Source: Candidatus Liptonbacteria bacterium
Lineage (GTDB): Bacteria > Patescibacteriota > Minisyncoccia > UBA6257 > 2-01-FULL-56-20
Assembly (NCBI GenBank): GCA_016867315.1
Contig: VGJV01000003.1
Location: 27,429 to 91,428, forward strand
Length of the DNA stretch: 64,000 nucleotides
Direction: 5' to 3'
The notes beneath the pieces were generated by a model. That model was given only the letters and a program-made list of their open reading frames with translations, was not told the origin of the DNA and searched no databases. A program made the translations under genes and the position numbers. This document shows, piece by piece, positions 18,939 through 51,521 of this stretch. Numbering within the stretch: the first letter of the stretch is position 1; the number at the start of each line of letters is the position of its first letter.

Positions 18939-19865
18939 ATGCTTTCTCGACTAAAAAAATATTTTATTCCTCAAAGGGAAAATGATCATGCCCCCCATAT
19001 TTTGAGAGGAAAAGCCGTAGTAATCACGATAGCGGCAATCCTTATAGGAGAAGTGATATTTCTCTCCGGGGCTAAGTATGTGGCTCCGCAATCCGAGCTT
19101 TTTGCAGTGATATTTTCGAATGCATTGGTAGATGGAACGAATCAAAACCGCCTTGCAAATAACCTCCCGGAACTCCGGGTAAATCCCTTACTTGAAGCGG
19201 CGGCACGGGCGAAAGCCCTCCACATGGCGCAGAATGGCTATTTTGCCCACACAAGCCCCACTGGGGTTACGCCCTGGTATTGGTTTGAAATGGTGGGATA
19301 TGACTTTAGCTATGCCGGGGAGAATCTCGCAGTAAACTTCCTTGATTCGGAAGATGTAACAAACGCCTGGATGGAATCTCCGACCCATCGGGCAAATATT
19401 CTTCGAGGGAATTTTACTGAAATAGGAATAGCCACCGCGCAAGGAGAATATGAGGGGAAACCCGCTACGTTTGTAGTGCAGCTTTTCGGATCACCGGCGA
19501 AGAAAAAAGTAGCTGCTGCTCCGAACAGGCAAAAAGTATCTTCCCCGATCCTAGAAAGTTCTTCTACCCCGCTTTTCGTAGCCGTAAGAGGGGCAGAAAT
19601 AGCCGCTGAATCGTTGAATCCGAAATCAATAGAGCCTCAAAACAATCCGGTGCAAGGGGCCCTCGCTGCTCCGCGAAAACTCGCGAACGGAGTCTATATA
19701 TTCTTTATAGGGTTGTTTGCACTGGCATTACTGATTATGATATGGAACATGTCTCTTACGCGGCACCCCAGATTGATATTCGGAGGGGCCCTGGTGATTG
19801 TGGTCGCGGGAGCAGGAATCCTTATAAATCAGCACGTGTCGCTTCTCTCCGCCTCGATTCTTTAG
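18939..19865 (+). CDS. CAP (SCP/PR1-like) domain protein, membrane anchored at both ends
   Basis: CAP motifs GYFAHTSPTG, GENLA and W(M)ESPTHRANIL. Hydrophobic segments at the N- and C-termini. Confidence 0.7.
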   Translation: MLSRLKKYFIPQRENDHAPHILRGKAVVITIAAILIGEVIFLSGAKYVAPQSELFAVIFSNALVDGTNQNRLANNLPELRVNPLLEAAARAKALHMAQNGYFAHTSPTGVTPWYWFEMVGYDFSYAGENLAVNFLDSEDVTNAWMESPTHRANILRGNFTEIGIATAQGEYEGKPATFVVQLFGSPAKKKVAAAPNRQKVSSPILESSSTPLFVAVRGAEIAAESLNPKSIEPQNNPVQGALAAPRKLANGVYIFFIGLFALALLIMIWNMSLTRHPRLIFGGALVIVVAGAGILINQHVSLLSASIL

Positions 19866-35165: not shown

Positions 35166-36215
35166 TTGTATGATGGGTCCACAACTATGGAACGGAATCC
35201 CAAAGAATTAAATGAAATCTTGGCCACTCTTACGCCTCGACAGCGAGAGGTAATTGTGCGCCGATTTGGCCTTGGTAAATCTGAAGGTGAAACCCTTGCG
35301 GAAATAGGGGTGCGCTTTGGCATTACACGCGAACGAGTTCGCCAAATTGAGGCTTCTGCAATGAAACTTCTAAGGGAAAAAATCGAAGCGCATCCTACCC
35401 TGGGAAACTTCGTCGCTCAAACCTGCTCGTTCCTTAAGTCTCGCGGGGGAGTAGTGCCGGCACAAGCGTTCATTGAAGAAGCCGCTTCACGTTTTCCTGG
35501 TATTGAAGCTTCGCATGTCGCGCTTCTCGCGGATGCAACCAAAGCTTTTTCTTTTTATCCCGGGGATCGGCACTTCCATTCGCTCTACTATCTTTCGAAA
35601 AACGACTTGAAAGAAGCAAAAAGTTTTGTGGACTCGTGGGAAAAGCACTTGAGCGACAAGAAGGAATCGGTATTGGGAGGAGCTTACGACGCACACTTGG
35701 GCAAATTTGTAGAAGAAAAGAAGCTGCCTTCTGCGCACGTAGAAAGCTACCTTACCGCTTCAAAAAAGATTCATGAGAATCCTTATGGAGATGTCGGACT
35801 CGCGGCATGGGCAGAAATCAAACCTCAAACCATCCGGGATCGAATTTATCTGGTGCTAAAGAAAGAGGGGAAGCCTTCGCACTTCCGGGATATTGCCGAA
35901 AAAATTACGGCCGCTGGGTTTGATTCGCGTCCTGCGCTCGCGGCAACCGTGCACAATGAACTTATTAAGGATCCCCGTTTTGTCTTGGTGGGCCGCGGAA
36001 TGTACGCCCTGAAAGAACATGGCTATGAAACCGGTACCGCACGAGAAATAATCCGCAAAATCTTGGCAGAGCAGGGAGCTATGCACCCTAAAGAAGTAAT
36101 CCTCGCCGCCCAAAAGAATTGGTTCTTCAAACCGAATACTATCCTTGTGAATCTCCAGAATCGCTCTCACTTCGAGCGATTGCCGGACGGGCGGTATAAG
36201 GTGCTTGAAAACTAA
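35166..36215 (+). CDS. sigma-70 region-4 (HTH) domain protein with an extended C-terminal domain
   Basis: N-terminal LTPRQREVIVRRFGLGKSEGETLAEIGVRFGITRERVRQIE is a sigma-70 r4/LuxR-like HTH. The rest is unassigned; the C-terminal region is possibly HARE-HTH-like. Confidence 0.5.
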   Translation: MYDGSTTMERNPKELNEILATLTPRQREVIVRRFGLGKSEGETLAEIGVRFGITRERVRQIEASAMKLLREKIEAHPTLGNFVAQTCSFLKSRGGVVPAQAFIEEAASRFPGIEASHVALLADATKAFSFYPGDRHFHSLYYLSKNDLKEAKSFVDSWEKHLSDKKESVLGGAYDAHLGKFVEEKKLPSAHVESYLTASKKIHENPYGDVGLAAWAEIKPQTIRDRIYLVLKKEGKPSHFRDIAEKITAAGFDSRPALAATVHNELIKDPRFVLVGRGMYALKEHGYETGTAREIIRKILAEQGAMHPKEVILAAQKNWFFKPNTILVNLQNRSHFERLPDGRYKVLEN

Positions 36216-37678: not shown

Positions 37679-38194
37679 ATGTCTACCTCCACTCCATTAC
37701 TCACGTCTGCAGACTTTTGGCTTTCGGTGCATACCGTTTTGGCCTGGATTTTTCTTGTGCTCGATCTCGCTCTTTTAGTGGGTTTCGTATATGCATTTAG
37801 AAAAATAATCAAATTTCGCCCGCACGAACTTAAACCTGGCGAACGTCACCCCACAGGAATGGCCTCTCCTCAAATAACGGTATTCCGCGAACGCTGGGAG
37901 GCAGTCATGCGGCGTTTCGATCTAAATTCTCCCGAAGCCATGCGATTTTCCATCCTCGAAGCTGATATCCTCGTAGACGCCATTCTTAAAGATTCCGGCT
38001 TAGAGGGAGAAAATTTAGCAGACCGCTTAGCCAAAGTAACCCCGGAAAGCATTCAAAGTCTAAATCAGCTTTGGAAATCTCATCGGCTGAGAAATAAACT
38101 TGCAGAAACAAGTGAGTATGAGTTGTCTGCCGAAGAGGCGCAATCTGCCATTCAAGGGTATGAAGCCTTCCTTAAGGAAATAAAAATACTTTAA
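37679..38194 (+). CDS. hypothetical small membrane-anchored protein (171 aa)
   Basis: One N-terminal TM helix (VLAWIFLVLDLALLVGFVYAF). Tightly spaced between 36287..37642 and the ATPase. Confidence 0.45.
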   Translation: MSTSTPLLTSADFWLSVHTVLAWIFLVLDLALLVGFVYAFRKIIKFRPHELKPGERHPTGMASPQITVFRERWEAVMRRFDLNSPEAMRFSILEADILVDAILKDSGLEGENLADRLAKVTPESIQSLNQLWKSHRLRNKLAETSEYELSAEEAQSAIQGYEAFLKEIKIL

Positions 38195-38238: not shown

Positions 38239-39705
38239 ATGCCAAGACCCGGGAAAGTCCAAATAATTAAATATGCGCCTCCGCCCCCGGAGCTGCCCAT
38301 ATTCGGACAGGTAGACCCTAAAGAATGTTCTTTCATCGGTCGCACGAACTATGTTGCGGCTCTTGAAGAAAAGAAATTCATTTTCGGTATTAAGCGGAAA
38401 GATCGCCGTCGACACCTCTACATAGTAGGGAAGAGCGGCGTGGGCAAAACCAAGCTCTTAGAGCTCATGATCCGACAGGATATCGCCTATGGTCATGGGC
38501 TCTGCCTTATTGACCCACACGGCGACGTCGTAGACGCTACGATCGATTTCGTTCCGGAAAATCGTATCGAAGATGTGGTAATTATTGATCCGACGGACTT
38601 TGAATATCCGGCTTCCTTCAACCCGCTTTCGAACGTCGACCCTAATTTTAAGCATCAACTTACGCAGGGGCTAATTGAAGTATTGGAAAAGCAATTCGGT
38701 GCGAACTGGACGCCCCGGCTCGAGCACGTGTTCCGTTTCACCTGCTTGGCGCTTTTGGATTATCCTCATGCCACAATGCGCGGCATGATTTCAATGCTCA
38801 CCGATCGGAACTACCGGCAAAAAGTGGTGGAATACATCGAGGACGACATGGTAAAGCGCTTCTGGGCAATTGAATTCGCCGACTGGTCGGAGAAATTCGA
38901 TACAGATGCCATTATTCCACTCGTAAACAAGCTTGGGCAATTCCTTTCAGATCCCATGCTCCGAAACATTTTCGGACAGAAGGAAAATAAAATTAGTTTG
39001 GAACAGCTCATTAATAATAAAAAGATTATTCTCATCAATCTCTCGAAGGGGAGGTTGGGCGAAGAAAATTCGAGCTTCTTTGGTTCTATGTTTATTACAA
39101 AAATCAAACAAGCCGGTATGGCCCGTGCCGGAATGCCCGAAAAAGACCGGCACGATTTCTATCTTTATGTGGACGAGTTCCAAAACGTAGTTACGGAAAC
39201 ATTCGAAAACATCCTCTCCGAGGCTCGCAAATACGGGCTGAACCTCACGGTGGCGCACCAATATATGGGTCAACTCATTCCTAAGGTGCAAGCCGCCGTG
39301 CTGGGAAATGTCGGGAGCATTGTAATTTTCCGGGTGGGCGGTGATGATGCAGTCGCCTTAAAACCTGAAATGGCACCGGTATTCGACGTGAAAGATATGA
39401 TCAACTTAGGAGTTCGAGAGTTTTACATCAAAATGACGATAGATGGAGAGTCGTACGATCCCTTCTCTGCCGAAACGCTCGCGGTGCTTCCCGCTCCGCA
39501 TCGCTCTTTCCGAAAAGAAATAATCGCGGCCTCTCGCCGCAAGTTCGCAATCTCCGCAGATGCTGCGAAGAAACTCATCGCTGAAGAAGAATCCACTATT
39601 CTCCGCAGCGCACAAGAAAAAGCCATCATCGAAGGCAAATCCAAAGGCTCGGGAGGGGGTGCCCCCGCAGCTGAAAGCGAGAAAGTAGCCGAGCCCCTCA
39701 TTTGA
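38239..39705 (+). CDS. soluble P-loop ATPase of the TrwB/TraD/VirD4 (type IV coupling protein, FtsK-HerA superfamily) type, copy 1
   Basis: Walker A GKSGVGKT (38428-38451) is followed about 20 aa later by LIDPHGD, the T4CP DPxGD/E motif. Walker B FYLYVDEF, then LTVAHQYMGQL. No N-terminal TM helices. Confidence 0.7.
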   Translation: MPRPGKVQIIKYAPPPPELPIFGQVDPKECSFIGRTNYVAALEEKKFIFGIKRKDRRRHLYIVGKSGVGKTKLLELMIRQDIAYGHGLCLIDPHGDVVDATIDFVPENRIEDVVIIDPTDFEYPASFNPLSNVDPNFKHQLTQGLIEVLEKQFGANWTPRLEHVFRFTCLALLDYPHATMRGMISMLTDRNYRQKVVEYIEDDMVKRFWAIEFADWSEKFDTDAIIPLVNKLGQFLSDPMLRNIFGQKENKISLEQLINNKKIILINLSKGRLGEENSSFFGSMFITKIKQAGMARAGMPEKDRHDFYLYVDEFQNVVTETFENILSEARKYGLNLTVAHQYMGQLIPKVQAAVLGNVGSIVIFRVGGDDAVALKPEMAPVFDVKDMINLGVREFYIKMTIDGESYDPFSAETLAVLPAPHRSFRKEIIAASRRKFAISADAAKKLIAEEESTILRSAQEKAIIEGKSKGSGGGAPAAESEKVAEPLI

Positions 39706-39766: not shown

Positions 39767-40285
39767 CTAGTGGTGTCCTCCTCCATGCCCGAGTTGGATC
39801 TCAGACTTCACGGCAGGATACACAATGTGGTGCACAAATAATCCAAGCGCTACTCCAAGCACTACGGAAAGAAGAAACTCGTTATAAGTTCGGATAAAGA
39901 AATAGTGGAAGGTTGCATAAAACACCAAGAAGCTCGCGCTAAAAATACTCCAACCCTTGAGTCGCGGGGGAATTACTTTTTTACCCCCGGAGAAGAGGAG
40001 AAAGGTGAGTATAGCGCCGGAGAACGCAAGCCAAAGGTCGAAGCCCCGGTAAATATCTCCGGCGGGAAATGCAGTTTTGAAAAAGCCGCTTACCTGATAA
40101 ATAAGTACGATAATGAAAAGGAAAAAACCTGCCCAAAACCCTCCTCGACTCGAAGCGCTCGCCCGTTTATCCGCAGTTTCAGCAGTGTGTTTATACACCT
40201 CCCATAGCGCCATTCCGAGGAGTGTAGGCACCAACCCCCAAATCACGAGATCAAATATGAACTTGAGCATCCCTTCCATGGCCAT
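39767..40285 (-). CDS. hypothetical 4-5 TM membrane protein with a His-rich C-terminus (…LGHGGGHH)
   Basis: 172-aa ORF on the minus strand. Hydrophobic helices. Confidence 0.45.
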   Translation of the reverse strand: MAMEGMLKFIFDLVIWGLVPTLLGMALWEVYKHTAETADKRASASSRGGFWAGFFLFIIVLIYQVSGFFKTAFPAGDIYRGFDLWLAFSGAILTFLLFSGGKKVIPPRLKGWSIFSASFLVFYATFHYFFIRTYNEFLLSVVLGVALGLFVHHIVYPAVKSEIQLGHGGGHH

Positions 40286-40565: not shown

Positions 40566-42320
40566 ATGAAAAATGAAGTGAGAAATTGTCAGAATTGTAA
40601 GTCTGATTTCACGATCGAAACGGAAGACTTCAACTTTTATCAGAAAATGCAGGTTCCGCCGCCCACATGGTGCCCAGATTGTCGGCTGGAGCGACGATTG
40701 GCATGGCGGAACGAAAGGGTGCTTTTTAGAAGAACGGACAGCATAACCGGCAAAACACTGCTCGCAGGGTTCCCGCAAGATGTGCCGTTTCCTATCTACG
40801 AACGAAACTATTGGTGGTCAGACGAGTGGGATCCGTTGCAATACGGAAGAGATTTCGATCCCTCAAGACCCTTCCTCGAACAACTGAAAGAACTAATGCA
40901 CACGGTGCCCTGGCCGAGCCGCAGTGTGATGTTCGAGACAAATTCGGAATATACGGATCAAGCCGGACATCTCAAAAATTGCTATCTTTGCTTCAACGCC
41001 GATTACTGCGAGAATTGTCTATATCTGGTCCGAGCGAATACCACCAAAGACACGCTGGATTCGCTGCAAGTTCAAAACTCCGAGCTTTGCTACGATTCGG
41101 TGCTCATCAACAAAAGTTTCCGCATGTTTTATTCATTCGACTGCGATGGCTCGAGTGATATGCATTTCTCAAAGCAGTGCGTGGGCTGTAATCACTGCTT
41201 CGGCTGCGTAGGGCTCCGAAAGAAAAGTTATCACATCTGGAATCAGCCTTATTCGAAGGAGGAATACGAAAAGAAATTGAAAGAAATGAACTTGGGCTCC
41301 CGCGCCTCGATCGAGGCCCTCAAAGCCGAAGCGCGTCGCTTTTGGCTCAAGTTCCCGTGCAAATACTACCGCGGGATTCGAAATATAGATTCGAGCGGAG
41401 ATATGCTTATCGATACAAAGAATGCCAAACAGTGTTACTGGGTAACGAATGCAAAAGACGTGCGCTACTGCCAAGATTTATACATCCAATCTGAAGACTG
41501 TTATGACTACACAGTCTGGGCAAATCATGGTACGCGGATTTATGAATGTCTCACCTGCGGCGAGGAAGTGCAGAACCTGAAATTTTGCTTCGATTGTTGG
41601 CCTGCCTGCCGAGATCTCGAATATTCCGTAGGCTGCCATTCGACTTCGGATTGCTTCGGCTGTGTCGGTTTGAAGAAAAAGCAATATTGCATACTGAATA
41701 AACAATATTCCAAAGAAGAATACGAAAAAATTCGCGAGCAGATTATCGCGCAGATGAAAGAAATTCCTTATGTGAATGAGAAGGGAATCGAATATAGGTA
41801 CGGAGAATTCTTGCCGACTGAATTTTCTCCTTTTGCGTATAACGAGACAATGCTTCTCGATGCGTTCCCACTCACTAAGGAAGAGGCGATAAAGAAGGGA
41901 TATCGCTGGCGGGATCCCGATCGCAAAGAGTATCAAACGACCCTTAAAGCTGCGGAGCTGCCGGATGCTATCAATGAAACAAAAGAAGAGATTACAAAGG
42001 AAATCCTCGAATGTGCAAAGTGCAAAAAAGCCTATCGAATTGTGGCGCCTGAACTCGCATTTCATAAGCGGCTCGAAATCCCATTGTCTGATATATGCCA
42101 AGATTGCAGGCATGCGGAACGGTTCACATTATTGAATTCTCCTCGATATTTCTCCAGGGCTTGCATGTGCGCCGGAGAAGCAGATGCCACGGGAGTGTAT
42201 AAAAATACCGCGACGCACTCACATGCAGGGCAGTGTCCCAGCAAATTTGAAACCGCGTATACTCCCGACCGCCCCGAGATTATCTATTGCGAAGAGTGTT
42301 ATCAAAAAGAAACCACTTAA
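40566..42320 (+). CDS. Cys-rich paralog family member 1 (584 aa), unknown function
   Basis: N-terminal C-x2-C-x21-C-x2-C-R (NCQNCKSDF…FYQKMQVPPPTWCPDCRLERR) and the WDP…YGRDFDPSRPF block. Two internal modules end C.GC.GL(R/K)KK.Y.I.N.QYSKEEYEK, followed by GEFLP…SPFAYNET. The C-terminus has C..C…YRI…FH…IP.S.IC.DCRH and a terminal C.C…NTATHSH…CP..FET.YTPDRPEIIYCEECYQ. Confidence 0.8.
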   Translation: MKNEVRNCQNCKSDFTIETEDFNFYQKMQVPPPTWCPDCRLERRLAWRNERVLFRRTDSITGKTLLAGFPQDVPFPIYERNYWWSDEWDPLQYGRDFDPSRPFLEQLKELMHTVPWPSRSVMFETNSEYTDQAGHLKNCYLCFNADYCENCLYLVRANTTKDTLDSLQVQNSELCYDSVLINKSFRMFYSFDCDGSSDMHFSKQCVGCNHCFGCVGLRKKSYHIWNQPYSKEEYEKKLKEMNLGSRASIEALKAEARRFWLKFPCKYYRGIRNIDSSGDMLIDTKNAKQCYWVTNAKDVRYCQDLYIQSEDCYDYTVWANHGTRIYECLTCGEEVQNLKFCFDCWPACRDLEYSVGCHSTSDCFGCVGLKKKQYCILNKQYSKEEYEKIREQIIAQMKEIPYVNEKGIEYRYGEFLPTEFSPFAYNETMLLDAFPLTKEEAIKKGYRWRDPDRKEYQTTLKAAELPDAINETKEEITKEILECAKCKKAYRIVAPELAFHKRLEIPLSDICQDCRHAERFTLLNSPRYFSRACMCAGEADATGVYKNTATHSHAGQCPSKFETAYTPDRPEIIYCEECYQKETT

Positions 42321-42321
42321 A

Positions 42322-44034
42322 ATGCAGAATATGAACTGCAAACACTGCAAAAAAGATTTTGCAGTCACTGCAGATGATCTACGGTGGTATGAAAAATTCG
42401 GAGTATGTATCCCAAAGCTTTGCCCACAGTGTCGGGCGCAGCGGCGGTTAGTCTTTCGAAACGAACGAAGCTTCTACAAGCGTCCCTGCGATAAGTGCAA
42501 AAAGGACGTGGTTTCGATGTATAGCCCCAACAAACCGTATACCGTGTACTGCCACGATTGTTGGTTTAGGGATGACTGGAATCCGCTTGATTTCGGTAGA
42601 GATTATGACTCCTCGCGGCCCTTTTTCGACCAGTTCAAAGAATTATGGGAAAAGGTGCCAAAAATTTCGCTTATCCATGTCCGGAGCGTGAATTCGGAAT
42701 ATCTGAATATCTGCGCCGATAATAAAAACTGCTACATGATTGTGGAATCTTCTAATAATGAAGATTCTATTCATTGCTATTGGATTCAAAAAACAAGGAA
42801 TTGTGTGGACACTTCTTTTTCCCATGAGTGCGAGCGCTGTTACGAATCGGACGACATTTACAATTGTTATCAAACACACTACAGCAAGGGGTGCCACGAC
42901 TGCCGGGATAGTTATTTTCTGTTCGATTGCAGAAATTGTTCTAATTGCATTGGCTGCGTGAATCTGCGCAACAAACAATATTGCGTGTTTAATGAACAAC
43001 TCTCCAAAGAGGAGTATCAAAAAATTTTGAAGGAAGCTCGACTCGACACTGCATCGGGCATAGAAAAATTGCGTGGCCAATTTGAAGAGTTTAAGAAAAA
43101 ACAGCCTCGCAAATTTGCGGAAGCGGTAAATGTAGTGAATTGCTCGGGGAATTATTTGAAGGATGCGAAAAACTGCAGCGACTGCTTCCATACATATGAA
43201 GCCGAAGACTGTAAATATGCGGTACACGCCTGGCGTGATGCGAAAGACTGCGTGGATACGGACACCACGGGCAGAGGAGTGCAGATGGTCTATAACTCGC
43301 ATAACACTGGCATCAATGCCTCGAATTGTATTTGCTGTGCGCTCTGCTGGGGAAACAACTTTCTTACTTACTGCGCGTATTGTTATGACTCACAAGACTG
43401 CTTTGCCTCCACCGGCCTCCGTAAAAAACAGCACTGCATTTTGAATAAACAATATTCCAAAGAAGACTACGAAAAACTCAAAACTCAAATTATTGCAGAT
43501 ATGAAACGCGAGGGCATATATGGGGAATATTTCCCGCCCTCCTTAAGCACGTTTGGATACAATGAGGCCTGTGTGCTCGAGCAAATACCGCTTATGAAAG
43601 AAGAAGCGCTCTCACAAGGTTTCAAATGGGAAGACCACCCTCGTGGCGCGTTCGGGAAAGAAACGGCAGGTTGGGAAAAAATTCCGGATTCTATCCTCGA
43701 GCTTCAATGCGATGCCTCCAAAGAAATTTTTGCATGTACTGCGTGTAGAAAAAATTATCGAATTATCTCTGACGAGCTTACGTTCTATAAATCGTTGGAA
43801 ATTCCCTCGCCGCGATTGTGTCCCGATTGCCGGCACGTGCGTCGCTTTACCGCGCGGGGTCCCAATCATGTAAAGGAAAAAAAATGTAGCTGCGAAGGTA
43901 TTAGAGCAGGGGGTTATCTGAATACTGCCAACACTTTCACGGAGAACATCCATGTCCTAACCGCTTTAAAACTGCCCATTATGAGGATTCCAATGCAATC
44001 CTTTACTGCGAAGAGTGTTATAACTCCGAAGTAG
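42322..44034 (+). CDS. Cys-rich paralog family member 2 (about 570 aa)
   Basis: Same architecture as member 1. The N-terminus has two complete CxxC…CxxC ribbons (NCKHCKKDF…CPQCR, CDKCKKDV…CHDC). The ORF track starts at 42184, overlapping member 1; the start is more likely at 42322 (MQNMNCKHC…). Confidence 0.8.
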   Translation: MQNMNCKHCKKDFAVTADDLRWYEKFGVCIPKLCPQCRAQRRLVFRNERSFYKRPCDKCKKDVVSMYSPNKPYTVYCHDCWFRDDWNPLDFGRDYDSSRPFFDQFKELWEKVPKISLIHVRSVNSEYLNICADNKNCYMIVESSNNEDSIHCYWIQKTRNCVDTSFSHECERCYESDDIYNCYQTHYSKGCHDCRDSYFLFDCRNCSNCIGCVNLRNKQYCVFNEQLSKEEYQKILKEARLDTASGIEKLRGQFEEFKKKQPRKFAEAVNVVNCSGNYLKDAKNCSDCFHTYEAEDCKYAVHAWRDAKDCVDTDTTGRGVQMVYNSHNTGINASNCICCALCWGNNFLTYCAYCYDSQDCFASTGLRKKQHCILNKQYSKEDYEKLKTQIIADMKREGIYGEYFPPSLSTFGYNEACVLEQIPLMKEEALSQGFKWEDHPRGAFGKETAGWEKIPDSILELQCDASKEIFACTACRKNYRIISDELTFYKSLEIPSPRLCPDCRHVRRFTARGPNHVKEKKCSCEGIRAGGYLNTANTFTENIHVLTALKLPIMRIPMQSFTAKSVITPK

Positions 44035-44118
44035 CATAGCCCTTCCCAAAACGTAAAACCTGTGGTAATGTAAAGACAGAAACCGTTCCTTTTAAAGGCC
44101 GAAAAACCATACTATCAA

Positions 44119-44427
44119 ATGGTTATTATCTATACTACGTGTAAGGATACGGCCGAAGCGACAAAGATCGGCAAGGTGATTTTGGACAGCAAATTGGCCT
44201 CTTGCGTGAACATCTGGCCCATCCAGAGCATGTTTCATTGGGAGGGAAAACTCGCTAATCAGCTCGAAGCCGGAATGCTGGTAAAAACCGTAGAACATCA
44301 CACTGCCGAGATCGAAGAATTGATCACGAAAAACCATTCCTATTCCGTACCTTTTATTGGCGTGATGCAGGTGCATCGCCATAATAGAGCGTACCGTGAA
44401 TGGATGAGTTCGGTGGTCAAACCATAA
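44119..44427 (+). CDS. cutA: divalent-cation tolerance protein CutA
   Basis: MVIIYTTCKDTAEA…SCVNIWPIQSMFHWEGK matches the CutA1 family. Confidence 0.8.
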   Translation: MVIIYTTCKDTAEATKIGKVILDSKLASCVNIWPIQSMFHWEGKLANQLEAGMLVKTVEHHTAEIEELITKNHSYSVPFIGVMQVHRHNRAYREWMSSVVKP

Positions 44428-45920
44428 TTTTTCAAATGAAGCTCGAGCTTATAAAAAAGCTCCCCACCGAAGGAGCAATAGTGTTTGTGATAAAAGAAGG
44501 AGTCTCTCTAAAGACACATCCATTTTTGAAGTTTCTCGGAGAGGAGGACAAAAAATATATCGAAACCGTCACGAATGCATCAGGTGCAAGTGGAATTTCT
44601 AATAAATTCTTGATTCTTCCCTCGGGAAGAAAAACTTTAATTATAAGTGTTCCTGCAAAAGATAAATTTACCGGCCGCAAAGCGATTCTCTCCGCCCGGC
44701 GGGTGATCGTGGCCGCTCGAAGTGAAAAACTGGCACAGATTGTCGTATTGCTCGAAGACTTTCAAGCCCGAACATCCCCGCAAGAAACCGCGACGATGCT
44801 TGGTACTCAACTGGAGATCGCCAATTTTGAATTTGTAGCATATAAAACTGCCCCTAAGGAAGGATGGAATTTTGTAGAAGAAGTCGGAGTATTCTCAAAG
44901 TACAGCCTAGAATCCTTACGCAAAGCGCTCGAAGCGGGAAAGGTAGTTGGAGAAGAAGTAAATGCGGCGCGAGTCCTCTCAAATACTCCTGGGGGAGATA
45001 TGACTCCTGCTGGCCTCGCTGAAGCAGCGCTCCAAGCCGGTAAAAAATCCGGGTTTAAAGTGACAATTTTGGATGAAAAAGAAATTACCAAACTCGGCAT
45101 GGGCGGCGTCTTGGGAGTCTCTAAAGGTTCCGTGGAAAAACCCCGCTTCATCGTCATAGAATACCTTCGCGGCAAAAAATCCGAAAAGCCGGTAGTGATA
45201 GTGGGAAAAGGAGTTACTTTCGATACTGGAGGATTGAACCTAAAACCCACGCAAGCGATCTATGAAATGCATATGGATATGTCCGGTGGAGCCGCCACAA
45301 TCCATATTCTCGGAGCACTCGCCCGGCTCAATGTAAAGAAAAACGTGATTGGGTTGGTACCTGCAGTAGAAAACATGCCCTCCGGTTCAAGTTTCCGCCC
45401 CGGAGACCTCTTAAAATCCATGTCGGGCAAAACCATTGAGGTAACGAATACTGATGCGGAAGGCCGAGTGATCCTCGCGGATGCCTTGGAATATGCCAAG
45501 CGTTACAATCCTCGTTTAGTAGTAGACATAGCTACGCTCACGGGCGCTGCGCTCGTAGCGCTGGGTCAACGAGCTTCTGCCATATTTTCGACCAGTGCTC
45601 CGGTAGAGCGTTCTCTTCGCGCAATTGGAGAAGAAACTGGAGATTTCGTCTGGCCGCTGCCCTTGTGGGAAGAATACGAAGAAGATATTAAAGGAATGTT
45701 CGGAGATTTTGCGAACTCCGGCAAGAGCCGCTGGGGAGGCGCGATTGAAGGCGCCGTATTCCTTCGCCAATTTATTCGCGACAAAGAAGGGAATGATGCA
45801 TATCCGTGGGTGCACCTCGATATTGCTCCCCGTATGACCTCGGTAGACGGAGAATTTCTGGCCAAGGGCGCCGCGGCTCCTTCCGTCGCCCTCCTCACGC
45901 AATTTTTGCGTGAATACTAA
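44400..45920 (+). CDS. pepA: leucyl aminopeptidase (M17 family)
   Basis: M17 signature NTDAEGRVILADAL, plus VGKGVTFDTGG and MDMSGGAA. The likely start is the M near 44430. Confidence 0.85.
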   Translation: MDEFGGQTIIFQMKLELIKKLPTEGAIVFVIKEGVSLKTHPFLKFLGEEDKKYIETVTNASGASGISNKFLILPSGRKTLIISVPAKDKFTGRKAILSARRVIVAARSEKLAQIVVLLEDFQARTSPQETATMLGTQLEIANFEFVAYKTAPKEGWNFVEEVGVFSKYSLESLRKALEAGKVVGEEVNAARVLSNTPGGDMTPAGLAEAALQAGKKSGFKVTILDEKEITKLGMGGVLGVSKGSVEKPRFIVIEYLRGKKSEKPVVIVGKGVTFDTGGLNLKPTQAIYEMHMDMSGGAATIHILGALARLNVKKNVIGLVPAVENMPSGSSFRPGDLLKSMSGKTIEVTNTDAEGRVILADALEYAKRYNPRLVVDIATLTGAALVALGQRASAIFSTSAPVERSLRAIGEETGDFVWPLPLWEEYEEDIKGMFGDFANSGKSRWGGAIEGAVFLRQFIRDKEGNDAYPWVHLDIAPRMTSVDGEFLAKGAAAPSVALLTQFLREY

Positions 45921-45941
45921 AATTAGGCTATTCTTAAAGGA

Positions 45942-47609
45942 ATGAGCTCGACTCGTTCCTGCAGGCAATGCAGGAACGCATTCTCTGTGGATGCTTCAGA
46001 CCTCTCATTTTATGAAAAAATGGGAGTTCCCGTGCCGGCACTCTGCCCCGAGTGCCGATTTCGACGTCGTGCCGGGTTTCGAAATGAACGCACGCTCTAC
46101 AAGCAAAACTGCAAACTTTGCGCCAAGTCGGTAATCACCATGTACAACCCAAAATCACCGCTTGTTGTGTACTGTAATGACTGCTGGGCTTCAGATAAAT
46201 GGGATCCGAGCGCATATGCGATGGAGTATGATCCTTCCCGCCCTTTCTTCGATCAGTTAAAAGAACTCTCTCAAAAAGTTCCTAAATCCGGAACGTATTC
46301 GAGTGCATGGGCAGGTCCGAATGTAAGAAGTGAATACACTAACTTCGCGGGGAGTAATAAAGACTGTTATCTTTGCTTTAATTCAGGCCCGGAAAATGAA
46401 AATTGCGCCTATTCCAGAGGCATCATGCGTTCGCGGGATACATTCGATACCTACTACGGTTATGAAACCGAAAGGGGATATGAGGGAATAAATATGCAAA
46501 AAAGCTCAGGTGTTGCCTGGGGACAAAATATCCTCGAATGTCTCGATTCCTGGTTTCTTTTGAACTGTGCGAGCGTCCAAAATTGCTTTGGATGTGTGAA
46601 TCTGCGTCATAAATCGAATGCCTTCCTAAATGAGCCTCTTGAAAAAGAAGAGTGGAAACGAAAAATTTTAGAAATTACCGGTAGCTATCAAAGAATTGAA
46701 GAATTTAAAAAACAATTTCAGGAACATGCACTCAAATTTCCGCGGCGAGAAAATAATAATTTGAAATCAGTTGATTGCACGGGGGATTACATATTCGAAT
46801 CCAAAAACTGTCATGACTCATTTGAGGTGGGTAATGGAGAAAATTTGAAATATGTGTTCTCTGTAAAGTTCACCAAAGACAGTTATGACTTAATTGGACA
46901 CGGGCGGAATTCTGAACTGCTGCTTGAGGGAGTGGGAGCCGGAGCAAGTCAGCGCATCATAGCCGGTTGGTGGATAGAAAATGCCCATGATGTGGAATAT
47001 TCTTTTGCGACGCGCGCGAGCGAATATTGTTTCGGCTGCGACGGAATAAAAGGAGGGAAGTATCGGATATTAAATAAGCAGTATTCAGAGGAAGAATATA
47101 AGAAACTTCGCGCGCATATTATAGAAGAATTGAAAAACATCGGAGAATATGGGCTCTTTTTTCCGCCCTCGCTCTCGTTTTTCGCATATAACGAAACCAT
47201 CGGACAGGACAATCTGCCGCTCTCCAAAGAAGAAGCTATCCGACAAGGCTTCCGCTGGGAGGAAAATCTTCCCGCCACGAAGGGTCAGGAAACACTAAAA
47301 GCGGAACAACTCCCGGATCACATTAAGGATGTGCAGGATTCGATTTTGAGCGAAATTCTCGCTTGTATTTCCTGCGGTCGGAATTATCGGCTTATCAAGC
47401 CGGAGCTAGAAGCATATCGACGAGCACTAATTCCCATTCCAAGAAAGTGCTTCAATTGTCGGCACCTAGATAGACTGACTCGCCGGGGCCCGTTTAAATT
47501 ATTCGACCGCACCTGCGCAAAGTGTAATAAAGCAATCCGAACCAACTACGCTCCAGAACGACCCGAAATTGTGTATTGCGAGACTTGTTACCAAAATGAA
47601 GTTATATAG
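45942..47609 (+). CDS. Cys-rich paralog family member 3 (555 aa)
   Basis: SCRQCRNAFSVDASDLSFYEKMGVPVPALCPECRFRRR, a second ribbon CKLCAKSV…CNDC, the KWDPSAY..EYDPSRPFFDQLKEL block, CFGCVNLRHK, ILNKQYSEEEYKK, FFPPSLSFFAYNETI and C-terminal CISCGRNYRL…CFNCRH…IVYCETCYQNE. Confidence 0.8.
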   Translation: MSSTRSCRQCRNAFSVDASDLSFYEKMGVPVPALCPECRFRRRAGFRNERTLYKQNCKLCAKSVITMYNPKSPLVVYCNDCWASDKWDPSAYAMEYDPSRPFFDQLKELSQKVPKSGTYSSAWAGPNVRSEYTNFAGSNKDCYLCFNSGPENENCAYSRGIMRSRDTFDTYYGYETERGYEGINMQKSSGVAWGQNILECLDSWFLLNCASVQNCFGCVNLRHKSNAFLNEPLEKEEWKRKILEITGSYQRIEEFKKQFQEHALKFPRRENNNLKSVDCTGDYIFESKNCHDSFEVGNGENLKYVFSVKFTKDSYDLIGHGRNSELLLEGVGAGASQRIIAGWWIENAHDVEYSFATRASEYCFGCDGIKGGKYRILNKQYSEEEYKKLRAHIIEELKNIGEYGLFFPPSLSFFAYNETIGQDNLPLSKEEAIRQGFRWEENLPATKGQETLKAEQLPDHIKDVQDSILSEILACISCGRNYRLIKPELEAYRRALIPIPRKCFNCRHLDRLTRRGPFKLFDRTCAKCNKAIRTNYAPERPEIVYCETCYQNEVI

Positions 47610-47622
47610 AGACCGAATAAGT

Positions 47623-47657
47623 CGAAGTCCCGCCATAGCTTTAGCGAAGGAGGATGA
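47623..47657 (+). promoter_or_regulatory. conserved 35-nt intergenic element, copy A (cgaagtcccgccAtagctttagcgaaggaggatga)
   Basis: 34 of 35 positions identical to 53318-53352. It lies downstream of paralog member 3. Confidence 0.5.
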
Positions 47658-47681
47658 AAGCTGCTACCAGCAGGAAGTGGT

Positions 47682-49361
47682 ATGGGACAGAAAATAGAAA
47701 TGAATGCTGAGATAAGAAATTGCAGAAGCTGCAAGCAAGACTTCACGATTGAACCGGACGATTTCACGTTTTATTCAAAAGTTGGAGTGCCCGCGCCGCA
47801 CGATTGTCCGGTGTGTCGTCAGCGTCGGAGGATGATTTTTCGAAATTTCAAGACGCTCTACAAGCGAAACTCCGATCGTTCTTCAAAGCCGATGATCTCG
47901 ATGTATGCTCCGCACGCATCATACAAGGTTTTCACCCACGATGAATGGTGGGCGGACAATTGGGATGCTCGGCAATATGGCCGAGACTTTGATTTTTCGA
48001 GACCATTTTTTGATCAATTTAAAGAACTTCTCCTTGCGGTGCCAAAGATGAATTTGGTAAGTGTTCAAAGTGAAAATTGTGAATACTCTAATTTTGCGTG
48101 GAAGAGCAAAAGCTGCTATCTCGTCTTCGGCTGCGTAGATAACGACACGTGCGCATACGGTCACATTGTTTGGGAATCGAAAGATTCTGTAGATAATCTC
48201 TATCTTTATAAATCTGAGCTTTGTTTTGAATGTGTGGATTGTTTATGGAGCTACGGCTTACTCTGGTCTCAAGAATGCGAGAGTTGCAGCGAGAGTATTG
48301 GGCTTTTCGACTGCCGGAGCTGTACCAACTGCATAGGTTGCGTAGGTCTAAAACAAAAGTCCTACCACATATTCAATCAGCCGGTAAGTAAAGAAGAATA
48401 TGTAAAGTTTTTAGCCGAGCATCCGCTTACCGATCCAAAAACACTTCCATATATTCTGGAAAAACAGCGTGAATTGAGGCGTCAAATACCTCAACGTCAT
48501 TTTTTTGGCTCACATAATAATGCGGTATCAGGAAATCACATATACCATGCAAAAAATGTGCGCTATTCCTTCGACGTAAAGGGAGGAGAAAACTCTAAAT
48601 TTGCATATACGACCCGCAAAGTAGTAGATGGCTATGATGTCGCGTTCTCACCAGACATAGAACTCGCATATCAAGCGCTCACCTCGCGCGGGAACGGGAT
48701 CTACTTCGCGCATATGAATTACGAATGCAGTGATATCTATTATTCGGATAGCTGCCAAAATGTGCATAACGCGTTTGGCTGCGCGGGGCTCAAGGGCGGA
48801 GAATATTTGATTTTGAATAAACAGTATTCAAAAGAAGAATACGAAACACTAGAAGAGAAGATCGTCGAGCATATGAAGAAAACAGGGGAGTGGGGAGAGT
48901 TCTTCCCGGCGACTCTTTCACCGTTCGCATATAACGAGTCCATCGCGCAGGAATATTTTCCACTAAGAAAGGAAGAAGTCCTCGCGTCGGGCTTTCGGTG
49001 GGAAGAAAATATTCCCCGCACTTCCGGACAGGAAACCATCTCTCATGATGCGCTTCCGAAAAATCCTGCCGAATTCGACGCAGATTCACTTTTAAAACAG
49101 GTTTTGAAGTGTGACAGTTGTGGTTACAATTTCCGTTTCACCGCCCAAGAAATTCCATTTTATAAACGATTAAATCTCCCCTTGCCCCGCAATTGTTTTA
49201 ACTGCCGTCACGAACGTCGCATGAAACAGCGAAATATACGTAAGCTATGGGATGGAAGCTGCGCGAAGTGCAATACAAAGTTTCAAACCTCCTACTCTCC
49301 GGAGCAGCAAAAGGAATTTAAAGTTTACTGCGACTCCTGCTATCTTCAAGAAATGGGTTAG
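47682..49361 (+). CDS. Cys-rich paralog family member 4 (559 aa)
   Basis: NCRSCKQDFTIEPDDFTFYSKVGVPAPHDCPVCRQRRR. The second N-terminal ribbon is degenerate (Cys lost). CIGCVGLKQKSYHIFNQPVSKEEY, LILNKQYSKEEYE, SPFAYNESIAQEYFPL and C-terminal CDSCGYNF…CFNCRH…KVYCDSCYLQE. Confidence 0.8.
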   Translation: MGQKIEMNAEIRNCRSCKQDFTIEPDDFTFYSKVGVPAPHDCPVCRQRRRMIFRNFKTLYKRNSDRSSKPMISMYAPHASYKVFTHDEWWADNWDARQYGRDFDFSRPFFDQFKELLLAVPKMNLVSVQSENCEYSNFAWKSKSCYLVFGCVDNDTCAYGHIVWESKDSVDNLYLYKSELCFECVDCLWSYGLLWSQECESCSESIGLFDCRSCTNCIGCVGLKQKSYHIFNQPVSKEEYVKFLAEHPLTDPKTLPYILEKQRELRRQIPQRHFFGSHNNAVSGNHIYHAKNVRYSFDVKGGENSKFAYTTRKVVDGYDVAFSPDIELAYQALTSRGNGIYFAHMNYECSDIYYSDSCQNVHNAFGCAGLKGGEYLILNKQYSKEEYETLEEKIVEHMKKTGEWGEFFPATLSPFAYNESIAQEYFPLRKEEVLASGFRWEENIPRTSGQETISHDALPKNPAEFDADSLLKQVLKCDSCGYNFRFTAQEIPFYKRLNLPLPRNCFNCRHERRMKQRNIRKLWDGSCAKCNTKFQTSYSPEQQKEFKVYCDSCYLQEMG

Positions 49362-49405
49362 AAGCAGTAACTCATCTACTAAGTATGCGATCGCTTAAGT
49401 AGTAG

Positions 49406-51160
49406 ATGAATCTCATAATGAACAATCAAATAAAAAGCTGTCAAAACTGCAAAAAAGACTTTGTGATTGCCCCGGAGGACTTTCAATTTTACGAACGTAT
49501 AAAAGTTCCGGCGCCGACGTTCTGTCCCGATTGTCGTCTCCAAAGACGCATGGCTTTCAGGAACGAACGAAGTTTATATAAAAACATTTGCGCACTTTGC
49601 AAAAAACAGTTTGTTTCGATGTATTCGCCAGACAAACCCTTTATAGTCTACTGCAAAGAATGTTGGTATTCGGATAACTGGGATCCGCTGCAATATGGTC
49701 AGGATTATGATTGGGATAAACCTTTCTTCGAACAGTTTCGGGAATTGATGCTTAAAGTTCCCAGAATCGGGATCATGCACATTCGCAACAATATCAATGC
49801 CGATTATGCGAACTATATCTCCGCAAGCAAGAATATTTATCTTTCTCAGTCCGTTATAGAAGGCTCAGAAAATATTTACTACTCTCGAAGTATAGATCGA
49901 AGCAAAGAAATCTTTGATTGTTTTAATGTCAAAGATTCCGAACGATGCTATGAAAATGTGGATGGTGGGAGAAATTATCGCTCGAAATTTCTGGTACGAT
50001 CGCGGGATTGCATTGATTCCGCATTTCTTTTCGACTGCGTGAACTGTCAGAACTGCATAATGAGCGCGAATCTGCGCAATCGGCAATATGTAATCCGCGG
50101 GAAACAATATTCAAAAGAGGAATATGCCACAGCCTTGGAGAAAATCGAATTCGGTAAACAAAGCGAAATTGAAAAATTAAAACAGGAATTCGAAAATGTG
50201 ATGGAAAAAGCCCTGCATAAATTCGCTAATATCACCAAATCAGTAACCTCAACGGGAGATAATATCGATAATTCTAAAAATGCGGCTTACCTCTTTGACG
50301 CATATAACTGCGAGAATGTGCGGTACGCGGCTAGGGCAATAGGATGTAAAGACTCCTACGATATCATGGGAGGGGCAAATCTCGAACTTGTATATGAACA
50401 GATGGCTGGTGGTTACGGAAGCAGAAACTCCTTAGCGTTAAGTCATGGGGAAGTGACGCTTGAGAGTAACTACACAGACTGGTGTCAAAGTTCCTCAAAT
50501 CTTTTCGGTTGCATATCACTTCGAAAGAAACAGTATTGTATTTTGAATAAGCAATATTCAGAGAAGGAATATAAGGAGTTCTATCCAAAGATTATCGAGC
50601 ATATGAATACAATGCCTTTCGAAGATAGAATGGGAAGAATGTACCGTTACGGAGAATTTTTCCCAATTGAGATTAGCCCATTCGCTTATAACGAGACGAT
50701 CGCAGAAGAATATTTCCTCCTCGCGAAGGAAGAAATTATGAAAAAAGGTTATACGTGGAGAGAACTCGATCCACTTCCGTACGTGCCCACTGTAAAGGGA
50801 AAAGATTTACCCGACGATATTGCGAATGTGGAAAATTCAGCAACCAAAGAATTGATAGAATGCGAAAATTGCAAACGAGTGTATCGAATAGTACAGCCGG
50901 AACTTGAATTTCTTCGGCGCGAACAAATTCCCTTACCGAGAACTTGCCAAGAATGCCGACACGCAAAAAGATTGACTCTCCGCAATCCCCTTAAATTATG
51001 GTCTCGAAAATGTATGTGTGACTATAAGGTATGGAAGAACACTGCGAAGCATGTCCATCATCCGGAAGATCGATGTTCAAACGAATTCGAAACGAGTTAT
51101 TCTCCAGAAAGGCCGGAGGTAATATATTGTGAGCAATGCTATCAAGCAGAAATTAGCTAG
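49406..51160 (+). CDS. Cys-rich paralog family member 5 (584 aa)
   Basis: SCQNCKKDFVIAPEDFQFYERIKVPAPTFCPDCRLQRR, CALCKKQF…CKECW, CQNCIMSANLRNRQYVIRGKQYSKEEY, CILNKQYSEKEYKE, SPFAYNETIAEEYF and C-terminal CENCKRVYRI…CQECRH…VIYCEQCYQAE. Confidence 0.8.
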   Translation: MNLIMNNQIKSCQNCKKDFVIAPEDFQFYERIKVPAPTFCPDCRLQRRMAFRNERSLYKNICALCKKQFVSMYSPDKPFIVYCKECWYSDNWDPLQYGQDYDWDKPFFEQFRELMLKVPRIGIMHIRNNINADYANYISASKNIYLSQSVIEGSENIYYSRSIDRSKEIFDCFNVKDSERCYENVDGGRNYRSKFLVRSRDCIDSAFLFDCVNCQNCIMSANLRNRQYVIRGKQYSKEEYATALEKIEFGKQSEIEKLKQEFENVMEKALHKFANITKSVTSTGDNIDNSKNAAYLFDAYNCENVRYAARAIGCKDSYDIMGGANLELVYEQMAGGYGSRNSLALSHGEVTLESNYTDWCQSSSNLFGCISLRKKQYCILNKQYSEKEYKEFYPKIIEHMNTMPFEDRMGRMYRYGEFFPIEISPFAYNETIAEEYFLLAKEEIMKKGYTWRELDPLPYVPTVKGKDLPDDIANVENSATKELIECENCKRVYRIVQPELEFLRREQIPLPRTCQECRHAKRLTLRNPLKLWSRKCMCDYKVWKNTAKHVHHPEDRCSNEFETSYSPERPEVIYCEQCYQAEIS

Positions 51161-51221
51161 CGATTTATGAAATAAGATTTATGATTTAAGAATCATACAT
51201 AAATCCTGAATCGTAAAATCA

Positions 51222-51518
51222 ATGCATTTCCGAATCGACAACGTAGGCGATAATATGAACACCGTCATGCGCCGGATAGGGTACACGCCCATCCGGTGGA
51301 CGGAAAAAGGGGAGTTGAACTGCGTCCGGCCGCTTCAAGGGCAGGACTACCCTCGTTTTCATGCGTATGTAAAAGAAGAACGCTTCACGCTAATTTTCAG
51401 CCTTCACCTGGATCAAAAGCGTCCTTCCTACGGCAATGAAACCGCACACAGTGGCGAGTATGAAGGAGAAATAATTCAAGAAGAAGCACGGAGGATTCAA
51501 AAGATCTTGAGCTTCTAG
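51222..51518 (+). CDS. hypothetical protein (98 aa) embedded in the paralog array
   Basis: ORF only. It sits between members 5 and 6 and ends 3 nt before member 6 starts. Confidence 0.35.
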   Translation: MHFRIDNVGDNMNTVMRRIGYTPIRWTEKGELNCVRPLQGQDYPRFHAYVKEERFTLIFSLHLDQKRPSYGNETAHSGEYEGEIIQEEARRIQKILSF

Positions 51519-51521
51519 AAA

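Follow-up and report, generated by a model that had tools for sequence, protein, structure and literature searches.

Two genes for paralogous ATPases resembling type IV coupling proteins (copy 1 and copy 2) are the subject of this analysis, together with the genes that accompany them in a 64,000-nucleotide stretch (the window) of contig VGJV01000003.1 from Candidatus Liptonbacteria bacterium. Copy 1 is the third gene of an operon that begins with a 451-aa protein of family DUF8128 and continues with a 171-aa membrane protein, here called TM171. Copy 2 lies further downstream, and seven paralogous cysteine-rich (Cys-rich) proteins are encoded between and beyond the two copies (Table 1). An earlier note on this DNA, made from the letters alone, had described both ATPases, and its claims are taken up where the results bear on them.

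Two ATPases of the VirD4/TrwB type

Both ATPase open reading frames (ORFs) named in the earlier note are present on the + strand, and all its motifs are found in the translations: GKSGVGKT/GKTGTGKS, DPHGD/DPHGE, LYVDEFQN in both copies and AHQYMGQL/AHQYIGQL. The copies are paralogous, as the note had it (45% identity across 415 aa, E 1e-130), and N-terminal transmembrane (TM) helices are indeed absent from both, the best 19-mer Kyte–Doolittle score (the measure of hydrophobicity used throughout) being 1.59 in copy 1, at the internal residue 346, and 1.31 in copy 2. The proposed likeness to TrwB, TraD and VirD4 survived testing: the ATPases are not of the KAP or AAA+ type and they score above threshold with the Pfam coupling-protein families, TrwB_AAD_bind giving 33.9 bits for copy 1 and 58.2 for copy 2 (gathering score 20.5), T4SS-DNA_transf 31.7 and 35.4 (20.1) and TraG-D_C 24.6 and 29.4 (22). 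DUF87 is likewise above its gathering score in both copies, and the database annotation of copy 1 is 'DUF87 domain-containing protein'; FtsK_SpoIIIE falls below its gathering score in both, which leaves them outside FtsK/SpoIIIE by Pfam. TrwB is the best match of the ATPases among PDB sequences, and the best NCBIfam matches are TraD and CD1115-type coupling proteins. The named equivalogs (TraD of the F, SXT and TOL types, and CD1115) were not reached, the best scores of 55.9 against a cutoff of 366 and 51.3 against 250 being far below, and VirB4-type NCBIfam models gave at most 17.7 bits against cutoffs of 590–1020, which places neither copy in VirB4.

In HMMER alignments the block from Walker A to DPHGD pairs residue for residue with TrwB 48–94 (GATGTGKS...DPNGD), and the block from Walker B to AHQY pairs with TrwB 271–321 so that Arg330 and Gln341 stand opposite the arginine and glutamine of TrwB in 'GRKAGLRVVAGLQ'. 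G64–T71, D312/E313, R330 and Q341 are invariant across 44 homologues. The AlphaFold2 (AF2) model of copy 1 (predicted local distance difference test (pLDDT) 81, predicted template modelling score (pTM) 0.81) has a RecA-like core with an all-alpha insertion of eight helices (about aa 135–260) between strands 113–116 and 263–267; TrwB aligns over 354 residues, and the TrwB_AAD_bind profile is covered over 12–310 of its 387 positions. The ATPases share with TrwB of R388, VirD4 and TraD the Walker A...DP[NH]GD and Walker B blocks, the Arg/Gln motifs and the inserted all-alpha domain, and differ from them in lacking N-terminal TM helices, in a structure-based identity of only about 15% and in not lying beside a relaxase or virB4 gene. 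By sequence and predicted fold they fall within the HerA/FtsK superfamily, in its VirB4/VirD4 branch, and the sequence profiles favour VirD4/TrwB. Both genes would then encode catalytically intact, vertically inherited ATPases of that branch, a statement that forms part of the explanation set out below and shares its standing as fairly probable.

The ends of the two proteins have features of their own. Copy 1 has a conserved N-terminal 'IQIIKYAPPPPELP' motif (38239..38300) and an invariant C-terminal 'EPLI' end (39640..39705), and many copy 2 orthologs end in 'KEVPEDVLRKILE' (55330..55477); these end motifs and tails could serve in docking or recognition.

DUF8128 and TM171, the probable partners encoded upstream of copy 1

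The 451-aa protein gave no match in the Pfam or NCBIfam libraries; its orthologs carry the precomputed family PF26449 (DUF8128), on which the literature searches returned nothing relevant. Its hydrophobicity peaks at 1.63 at residue 7, within a predicted N-terminal helix of 38 residues, and the AF2 model (pLDDT 82, pTM 0.78) shows this long helix followed by alpha/beta domains. When the model was compared with known structures by Foldseek, ten chains of TrwK, the VirB4 of R388, ranked first. A P-loop is absent from DUF8128, and TrwK is the sole HerA/FtsK ATPase among the matches, so that the part of VirB4 resembled by DUF8128 would be the N-terminal, non-ATPase half.

The ATPase family as a whole comprises 21,719 matches at E ≤ 1e-3. 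Of the 150 cluster representatives (50% identity) closest to copy 1, 69 are extended at the N-terminus by over 150 residues, and the DUF8128 hidden Markov model (HMM) matches 50 of these extended proteins. The strongest match (E 6.5e-68) is that of a 956-aa protein with DUF8128 at 7–430 and the ATPase at 410–853. A junction motif, K-x-G-x-P-P-x-x-L-P-I-x-G, occurs once in the fusions, where it forms part of the single junction '..SKKGEPPxxLPIxG..(S/T)xFGxTNFR..FGIKxxDRRRH.Y..GK(S/T)G', and in the split form it is found both at the DUF8128 C-terminus ('RKTGPPAGLAIYG') and at the copy 1 N-terminus ('KYAPPPPELPIFG').

Gene order was followed in two samples, the species loci (one genome per species, 80 species, ranked by similarity to copy 1) and a set of 56 metagenome loci seeded independently with DUF8128. 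TM171 and the ATPase gene lie directly downstream of DUF8128 in 55 of the 56 metagenome loci, and in the species loci DUF8128–TM171 lies directly upstream of copy 1 in 40 of 72, TM171 being the intervening gene in every one of the 40. The suggestion that the upstream membrane proteins anchor the ATPase in trans is therefore strongly supported by the natural DUF8128–ATPase fusions together with the near-obligate adjacency; by sequence, DUF8128 corresponds to the N-terminal half of the coupling protein, encoded in trans.

TM171 has a hydrophobicity of 2.52 at residue 19 and belongs to no Pfam or NCBIfam family, and its HMM found no match in the 150 representatives, in the plasmid loci described below or in loci without DUF8128. 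Positive charges follow the TM segment in both DUF8128 and TM171 proteins, and by the positive-inside rule the soluble domains of both are predicted to be cytoplasmic.

Most TM171 orthologs (L005–L084) have R-x-R-N-[DEN]-L-V-H near the C-terminus, a HEPN-like RNxxxH motif, and there are sub-threshold Pfam matches to HEPN_Swt1 (E 0.0019) and HEPN_RiboL-PSP; in the TM171 of the window and its closest relatives the sequence is RLRNKLAE or RFRNELA[RG] and the HEPN histidine is lost.

A further reading, as an anti-phage defence module of HerA/DptH/MADS type in which a HerA-like ATPase works with effectors, was also considered. It was rejected since PADLOC returned only superfamily-level matches for the ATPases (weak, mad8 at 45–56 bits) and no model matched the partner proteins. 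Pfam and NCBIfam place the ATPases with coupling proteins, the TM171 of the window has lost the HEPN histidine, and the genes are present almost universally, in conserved order and with extreme sequence conservation amid housekeeping genes, whereas defence islands are patchily distributed and turn over fast. Such a module is barely credible here.

Coupling proteins that lack a transmembrane domain (TMD) and have a small membrane partner are a recognised subclass, represented by TraJ/TraI of pIP501 (PMC7434980). The pIP501 pair resembles the present one in that a soluble VirD4-type ATPase is encoded just after one or more small membrane proteins thought to anchor it in trans, and in its monoderm lineage. 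It differs in that the partner here is a 451-aa protein like the N-terminal domain of VirB4, accompanied by a second protein of 171 aa, and in that the genes here are chromosomal, duplicated, extremely conserved and without a type IV secretion system (T4SS) or relaxase nearby. The fold resemblance of both halves to VirB4 (TrwK, and the C-terminal domain of the Thermoanaerobacter pseudethanolicus protein in PDB entry 4ag5) is real, but the ATPase scores as a coupling protein and has the all-alpha insertion, DUF8128 has its own N-terminal TM helix, and the halves are split.

Conservation and occurrence in Patescibacteria

Copy 1 is 78–92% identical across the 80 species, which include Liptonbacteria, Jorgensenbacteria, Nomurabacteria, Gribaldobacteria, Minisyncoccia and others, while DnaK in the same loci is 61–86% identical; in 15 of 15 paired loci the value for copy 1 is the higher. 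Median identities are 81% for copy 1, 64% for DnaK, 64% for SecD, 52% for DUF8128 and 35% for TM171. Because copy 1 evolves more slowly than the Hsp70 protein DnaK, it probably has a core housekeeping function.

Coupling-protein homologues in Patescibacteria had escaped the earlier note and had already been reported in 2025 (PMC12102498): 5,713 VirD4-type homologues were counted in 2,918 of 3,035 genomes, 148 of them near virB4, with VirB4 itself in 2,417 genomes, and exaptation of the homologues was raised as a possibility. The genes counted by Quinonero-Coronel et al. (PMC12102498) are almost certainly the same as those studied here, occurring about twice per genome, far from virB4 and with suspected exaptation; that study consists of HMM counts, and the DUF8128/TM171 partners and fusions, the division into two paralog types, the zinc finger, the degree of conservation and the Cys-rich genes nearby are not covered in it. 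What is already published is the presence of VirD4-type homologues in Patescibacteria with their suspected exaptation (PMC12102498) and the existence of TMD-less two-partner coupling proteins (PMC7434980). Not found in the literature searched were the VirB4-N-terminal-like DUF8128 and its frequent fusion to coupling-protein-type ATPases, TM171, the two paralog classes, the extreme conservation of copy 1 and the treble-clef link described in the next section.

Copy 2 and the Cys-rich treble-clef family

The start of copy 2 is probably the ATG at 53591 and not the GTG at 53495, because 28 orthologs begin at the equivalent of Met33 (MG.[ED]P[ED]KDV.YF). The orthologs are 59–70% identical. The protein carries a CxxC-x17-CxxC treble-clef zinc finger (Pfam zf_Tbcl_2, 2e-13), kept in 26 of the 28 orthologs, then an 'LAxLGIEF' motif and a long acidic, disordered tail of low complexity. 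Copies 1 and 2 lie no more than 10 kb apart in 28 loci and no more than 1 kb apart in eight, with from zero to several Cys-rich genes between them.

The Cys-rich family has seven paralogs in the window (555–595 aa, 27–44 Cys, 36–44% pairwise identity). Pfam finds nothing in these proteins but zf_Tbcl fingers, at the N-terminus and again close to the C-terminus, and zf_Tbcl_2, at the very C-terminal end; zf_Tbcl_2 is the finger type common to copy 2 and the Cys-rich members. No signal peptide was found in the family, a profile of six paralogs had no match among PDB sequences, and literature searches on CxxC-x17-CxxC and on Cys-rich proteins of the Candidate Phyla Radiation (CPR) yielded nothing relevant. 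Single paralogs have orthologs at 40–82% identity in other genomes, and for this reason the family is an old one under purifying selection, not a set of fast-evolving effectors.

The statement that the ATPases bracket a Cys-rich array holds for the six members that lie between the copies; the seventh is downstream of copy 2, past trmD, comEC, a metallo-beta-lactamase-fold gene and two further genes. The array of six is similarly not a pure one, since it also holds cutA, pepA and a 98-aa ORF. Had the ATPase and the Cys-rich family never occurred together elsewhere, the association proposed in the note would have fallen. In fact 42 of 46 species loci have one or more Cys-rich genes no further than 10 kb from the ATPase, and of 29 metagenome loci seeded independently, 25 have such a gene within 6 kb of DUF8128.

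The Cys-rich proteins (40566..53309) contain an internal duplication, a block 'CFGC..L[RK].K.Y.I.N...SKEEY' being present twice, and the invariant non-Cys motifs ILNKQY, YNE and KEE..G..W; because of the duplication and these motifs they are more than strings of zinc fingers. The ORF of member 2 (42184..44034) overlaps the end of member 1, and the family alignment puts the true start near 42328. The C-terminus of member 2 diverges and is without the final CxxC pair, so that its last zinc finger may have decayed.

The position of copy 2 bears on the proposal that the ATPases are cytoplasmic DNA-uptake motors which pull single-stranded DNA (ssDNA) through ComEC, with the treble-clef fingers binding the incoming nucleic acid. 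The order copy 2–trmD–comEC is found in the window and in loci L021, L040 and L049, and copy 2–trmD in L013. Coupling proteins depend on DNA for their ATPase activity (PMC7434980), the list of conserved com genes in CPR comprises ComEC, DprA and ComFC with no mention of the ComFA motor, both ComEC (PMC10633639) and the coupling-protein homologue (PMC12102498) are dispensable in S. epibionticum, and the archaeal Ced system imports DNA by T4SS-derived ATPases (cited in PMC12102498). The gene order nevertheless gives the idea weak support, as an unrelated housekeeping gene, trmD, stands between copy 2 and comEC and the arrangement is confined to a few closely related loci, most copy 2 loci having no comEC nearby. 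The NCBIfam CedD model reaches 26.5 bits against a cutoff of 600, nothing links copy 1, DUF8128 or the Cys-rich family to competence genes, and the extreme conservation of copy 1 would be unexpected in a dispensable competence factor. Taking both sides together we regard a ComEC motor in this sense as distinctly improbable.

Plasmid relatives and the question of a T4SS

When plasmids were searched with the ATPase by tblastn, 255 records matched at no more than 37% identity, and plasmid relatives of the DUF8128–ATPase pair were found among them by inspection of gene neighbourhoods and by hhalign. On a Bacillus subtilis plasmid the gene before a soluble DUF87 ATPase is a 272-aa ORF with a match to the DUF8128 profile (hhalign probability 95.5%, E 1.6e-8); after the ATPase come a replication-relaxation relaxase, a conjugal transfer protein and a VirB4-like ATPase. 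On an Embleya plasmid the C-terminal part of an 812-aa protein is the ATPase, and before it come a TM segment and an N-terminal region whose similarity to DUF8128 is weak (hhalign E 0.006, probability 6%); the gene for this protein is flanked by PrgI and VirB4-like genes on one side and by relaxase and NlpC/P60 genes on the other. These plasmid proteins of Bacillus and Embleya/Streptomyces (uncharacterised, and annotated 'DUF87' or 'type IV secretory system conjugative DNA transfer family protein') have the same two modules as the chromosomal pair, fused in Embleya and adjacent in B. subtilis, and are 25–31% identical to copy 1. They differ from it in lying in conjugation clusters with a Replic_Relax relaxase, a VirB4-like ATPase, PrgI and a cell-wall hydrolase, and in lacking TM171, the zinc-finger paralog and the Cys-rich family. 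Because the plasmid relatives sit in conjugation clusters, the DUF8128–ATPase pair represents the coupling protein of a class of monoderm conjugation systems.

It could be argued from this that the ATPases are still working coupling proteins, serving a Patescibacterial T4SS encoded elsewhere, with DUF8128 docking copy 1 on a VirB3/VirB6/VirB8 platform as the N-terminal domain of VirB4 does and with the Cys-rich proteins as exported effectors or adaptors. In Legionella, DotN is a precedent for a coupling protein with a Zn-binding adaptor. No function of the family is known other than the coupling of substrates to a T4SS (PMC7434980), the nearest relatives outside CPR belong to conjugative T4SS clusters, the fold of DUF8128 is like that of the VirB4 N-terminal domain, and T4SS are widespread in Patescibacteria, where genes for coupling proteins are often far from virB4 (PMC12102498). 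Against this, the homologues occur in more genomes than VirB4 does and few of them are near virB4 (counts given above; PMC12102498), and in S. epibionticum the homologue is dispensable while the T4SS is essential (PMC12102498, PMC10633639). VirB4 was not detected in the window or in 160 related loci (2.0 Mb) in a screen with two single-sequence queries, which has modest sensitivity, and no relaxase domain was found among the window ORFs scanned. Conservation above that of DnaK is unlike conjugative coupling proteins, the identities of the Cys-rich orthologs and their lack of signal peptides are unlike fast-evolving effectors, and tightly folded multi-zinc proteins are poor substrates for secretion. 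On this evidence a role of the whole set as T4SS coupling proteins and clients is rather doubtful.

A probable split motor fixed in the chromosome

The explanation that we prefer, and consider fairly probable as a whole, is that the locus encodes a split coupling-protein-type motor that has become fixed in the chromosome of Paceibacteria. The ancestral setting of the DUF8128–ATPase pair is, on this view, the monoderm conjugation apparatus; in Paceibacteria the pair became a fixture of the core chromosome, underwent duplication and came under very strong purifying selection. Copy 1 is envisaged as a ring like that of TrwB, from which its oligomerisation is taken by analogy, and DUF8128 with TM171 would hold this ring on the cytoplasmic face of the membrane. 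Copy 2 appears to have exchanged the connection to the anchor for its C-terminal treble-clef zinc finger and may be a free or differently targeted paralog, the finger perhaps binding the same ligand as the Cys-rich proteins, either nucleic acid or a common docking site. The complex might then be a membrane-docked, ATP-driven receptor or translocase that engages its clients via zinc-finger modules, the Cys-rich proteins being adaptors or clients, and ATP would be spent on moving or remodelling clients at the membrane in the manner of a coupling protein but outside a plasmid conjugation module.

As to the conduit that such a motor would serve, a Patescibacterial T4SS encoded elsewhere is quite possible, a housekeeping role independent of any T4SS is possible, and ComEC or some other handling of nucleic acid is unlikely. 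A bolder version, tentative and in our estimate rather unlikely, would have DUF8128, TM171 and copy 1, with copy 2 and the treble-clef family, form a T4SS-independent housekeeping membrane motor derived from a VirB4/coupling-protein hybrid; its candidate roles would be as the missing cytoplasmic ssDNA-import motor for ComEC or in the membrane loading or remodelling of multi-zinc-finger proteins or nucleic acids, and the widespread fusions would represent the intermediate by which VirD4 arose from VirB4.

Several points weigh against the split chromosomal motor. DUF8128 is missing within 10 kb of copy 1 in 31 of the 72 species loci, in which either the partner is encoded elsewhere or copy 1 works alone. 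The resemblance of the DUF8128 model to the N-terminal rather than the C-terminal half of TrwK is deduced indirectly. The DUF8128 profile gave no match to pSK41 TrsD (hhalign E 0.38, with a single-sequence TrsD and hence low power) or to TrsJ, the analogue of TraI, and tblastn of DUF8128 against plasmids gave none either. As the 80 species loci were ranked by how closely they match copy 1, its apparent conservation is inflated; the paired comparison with DnaK is made within genomes. Lastly, the synteny of the Cys-rich genes could be gene order handed down in a single class, with no bearing on function.

Patescibacteria account for much of the diversity of bacteria, and the majority of their conserved genes lack an assigned role. 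Coupling-protein homologues are present in 96% of their genomes, about two in each and almost never by a T4SS, and what they do is an acknowledged open question (PMC12102498). The locus offers handles on this question in the three-gene operon with its fusion-validated DUF8128 partner and TM171, in the two paralog types and in a candidate client or adaptor family sharing the copy 2 zinc finger. A coupling-protein-type ATPase joined to a VirB4-like N-terminal domain, as a fusion in many lineages, also bears on the divergence of VirD4 and VirB4 and on how TMD-less coupling proteins are docked at the membrane.

Gene neighbourhood

The coordinates of the genes discussed are collected in Table 1. 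The remaining neighbours in the window are housekeeping genes (UvrC, G6PD-6PGD, DnaB, CysRS, CorA, DnaK, DnaJ, SecD, SecF, TrmD and ComEC). A mobile element was rejected as a reading of the locus in view of flanks that include DnaB, CysRS, DnaK/J, SecDF, TrmD and ComEC and of a base composition that is flat across the window.

Table 1. Genes and motifs of the ATPase locus, numbered from the first letter of the window
Feature	Position	Strand	Remarks
Sigma-70 region 4 + HARE-HTH protein	35166..36215	+	Pfam Sigma70_r4 3e-17, HARE-HTH 2e-8
DUF8128 protein, 451 aa	36287..37642	+	Predicted N-terminal membrane helix and cytoplasmic fold like the VirB4 N-terminal domain
TM171, 171-aa bitopic membrane protein	37679..38194	+	Predicted N-terminal TM helix and cytoplasmic helical domain; middle gene of operon
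Copy 1 (ATPase1), 488 aa	38239..39705	+	Soluble ATPase of VirD4/TrwB coupling-protein type
Copy 1, Walker A	38428..38451	
Copy 1, DPHGD	38512..38526	
Copy 1, Walker B	39163..39186	
Copy 1, AHQYMGQL	39253..39276	
172-aa polytopic membrane protein	39767..40285	-	Convergent with copy 1; no Pfam family
Cys-rich treble-clef member 1, 584 aa	40566..42320	+	36 Cys
Cys-rich member 2	42328..44034	+	Start corrected from ORF start 42184; degenerate C-terminal zinc finger
cutA, CutA1 divalent-ion tolerance protein	44119..44427	+	Pfam CutA1 1.4e-28
pepA	44400..45920		Inside Cys-rich array
Cys-rich member 3, 555 aa	45942..47609	+	Pfam zf_Tbcl_2 3.6e-5 (extreme C-terminus), zf_Tbcl; TIGR04272 0.005
Cys-rich member 4, 559 aa	47682..49361	+	Pfam zf_Tbcl 1e-5 (above gathering score), zf_Tbcl_2 1.1e-3
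Cys-rich member 5, 584 aa	49406..51160	+	
98-aa ORF	51222..51518	+	No family in Pfam/NCBIfam
Cys-rich member 6, 595 aa	51522..53309	+	
Copy 2 (ATPase2), 628 aa from corrected start	53591..55477	+	ATPase core, zinc finger (nt 54944..55042), tail
Cys-rich member 7, 592 aa	61104..62882	+	31 Cys; blastp 44% identity to member 5, E 3e-177

The Sigma-70 region 4/HARE-HTH gene is found directly 5' of DUF8128, after secD–secF, in nearly all loci with DUF8128 upstream of copy 1, and its product may belong functionally to the module. A link to the module is likewise tentative for the 172-aa membrane protein, which ends in GHGGGHH and whose gene has the same position in L006, L007, L008 and L033 and lies inside the array in L012. 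CutA1 is found in 26 of the 80 species loci, repeatedly just after copy 1 or within the Cys-rich array, and its recurrence possibly marks a link to metal handling. The 98-aa ORF recurs in the Cys-rich arrays of L010, L012, L017 and L036 (tblastn, 53–58% identity).

Further from the ATPases, a single 808-aa ORF at 6669..9095 joins glucose-6-phosphate dehydrogenase and 6-phosphogluconate dehydrogenase domains, and a CAP-domain family with transmembrane segments, noted at 18939..19865, has been described as nearly CPR-specific (bioRxiv 10.1101/335083).

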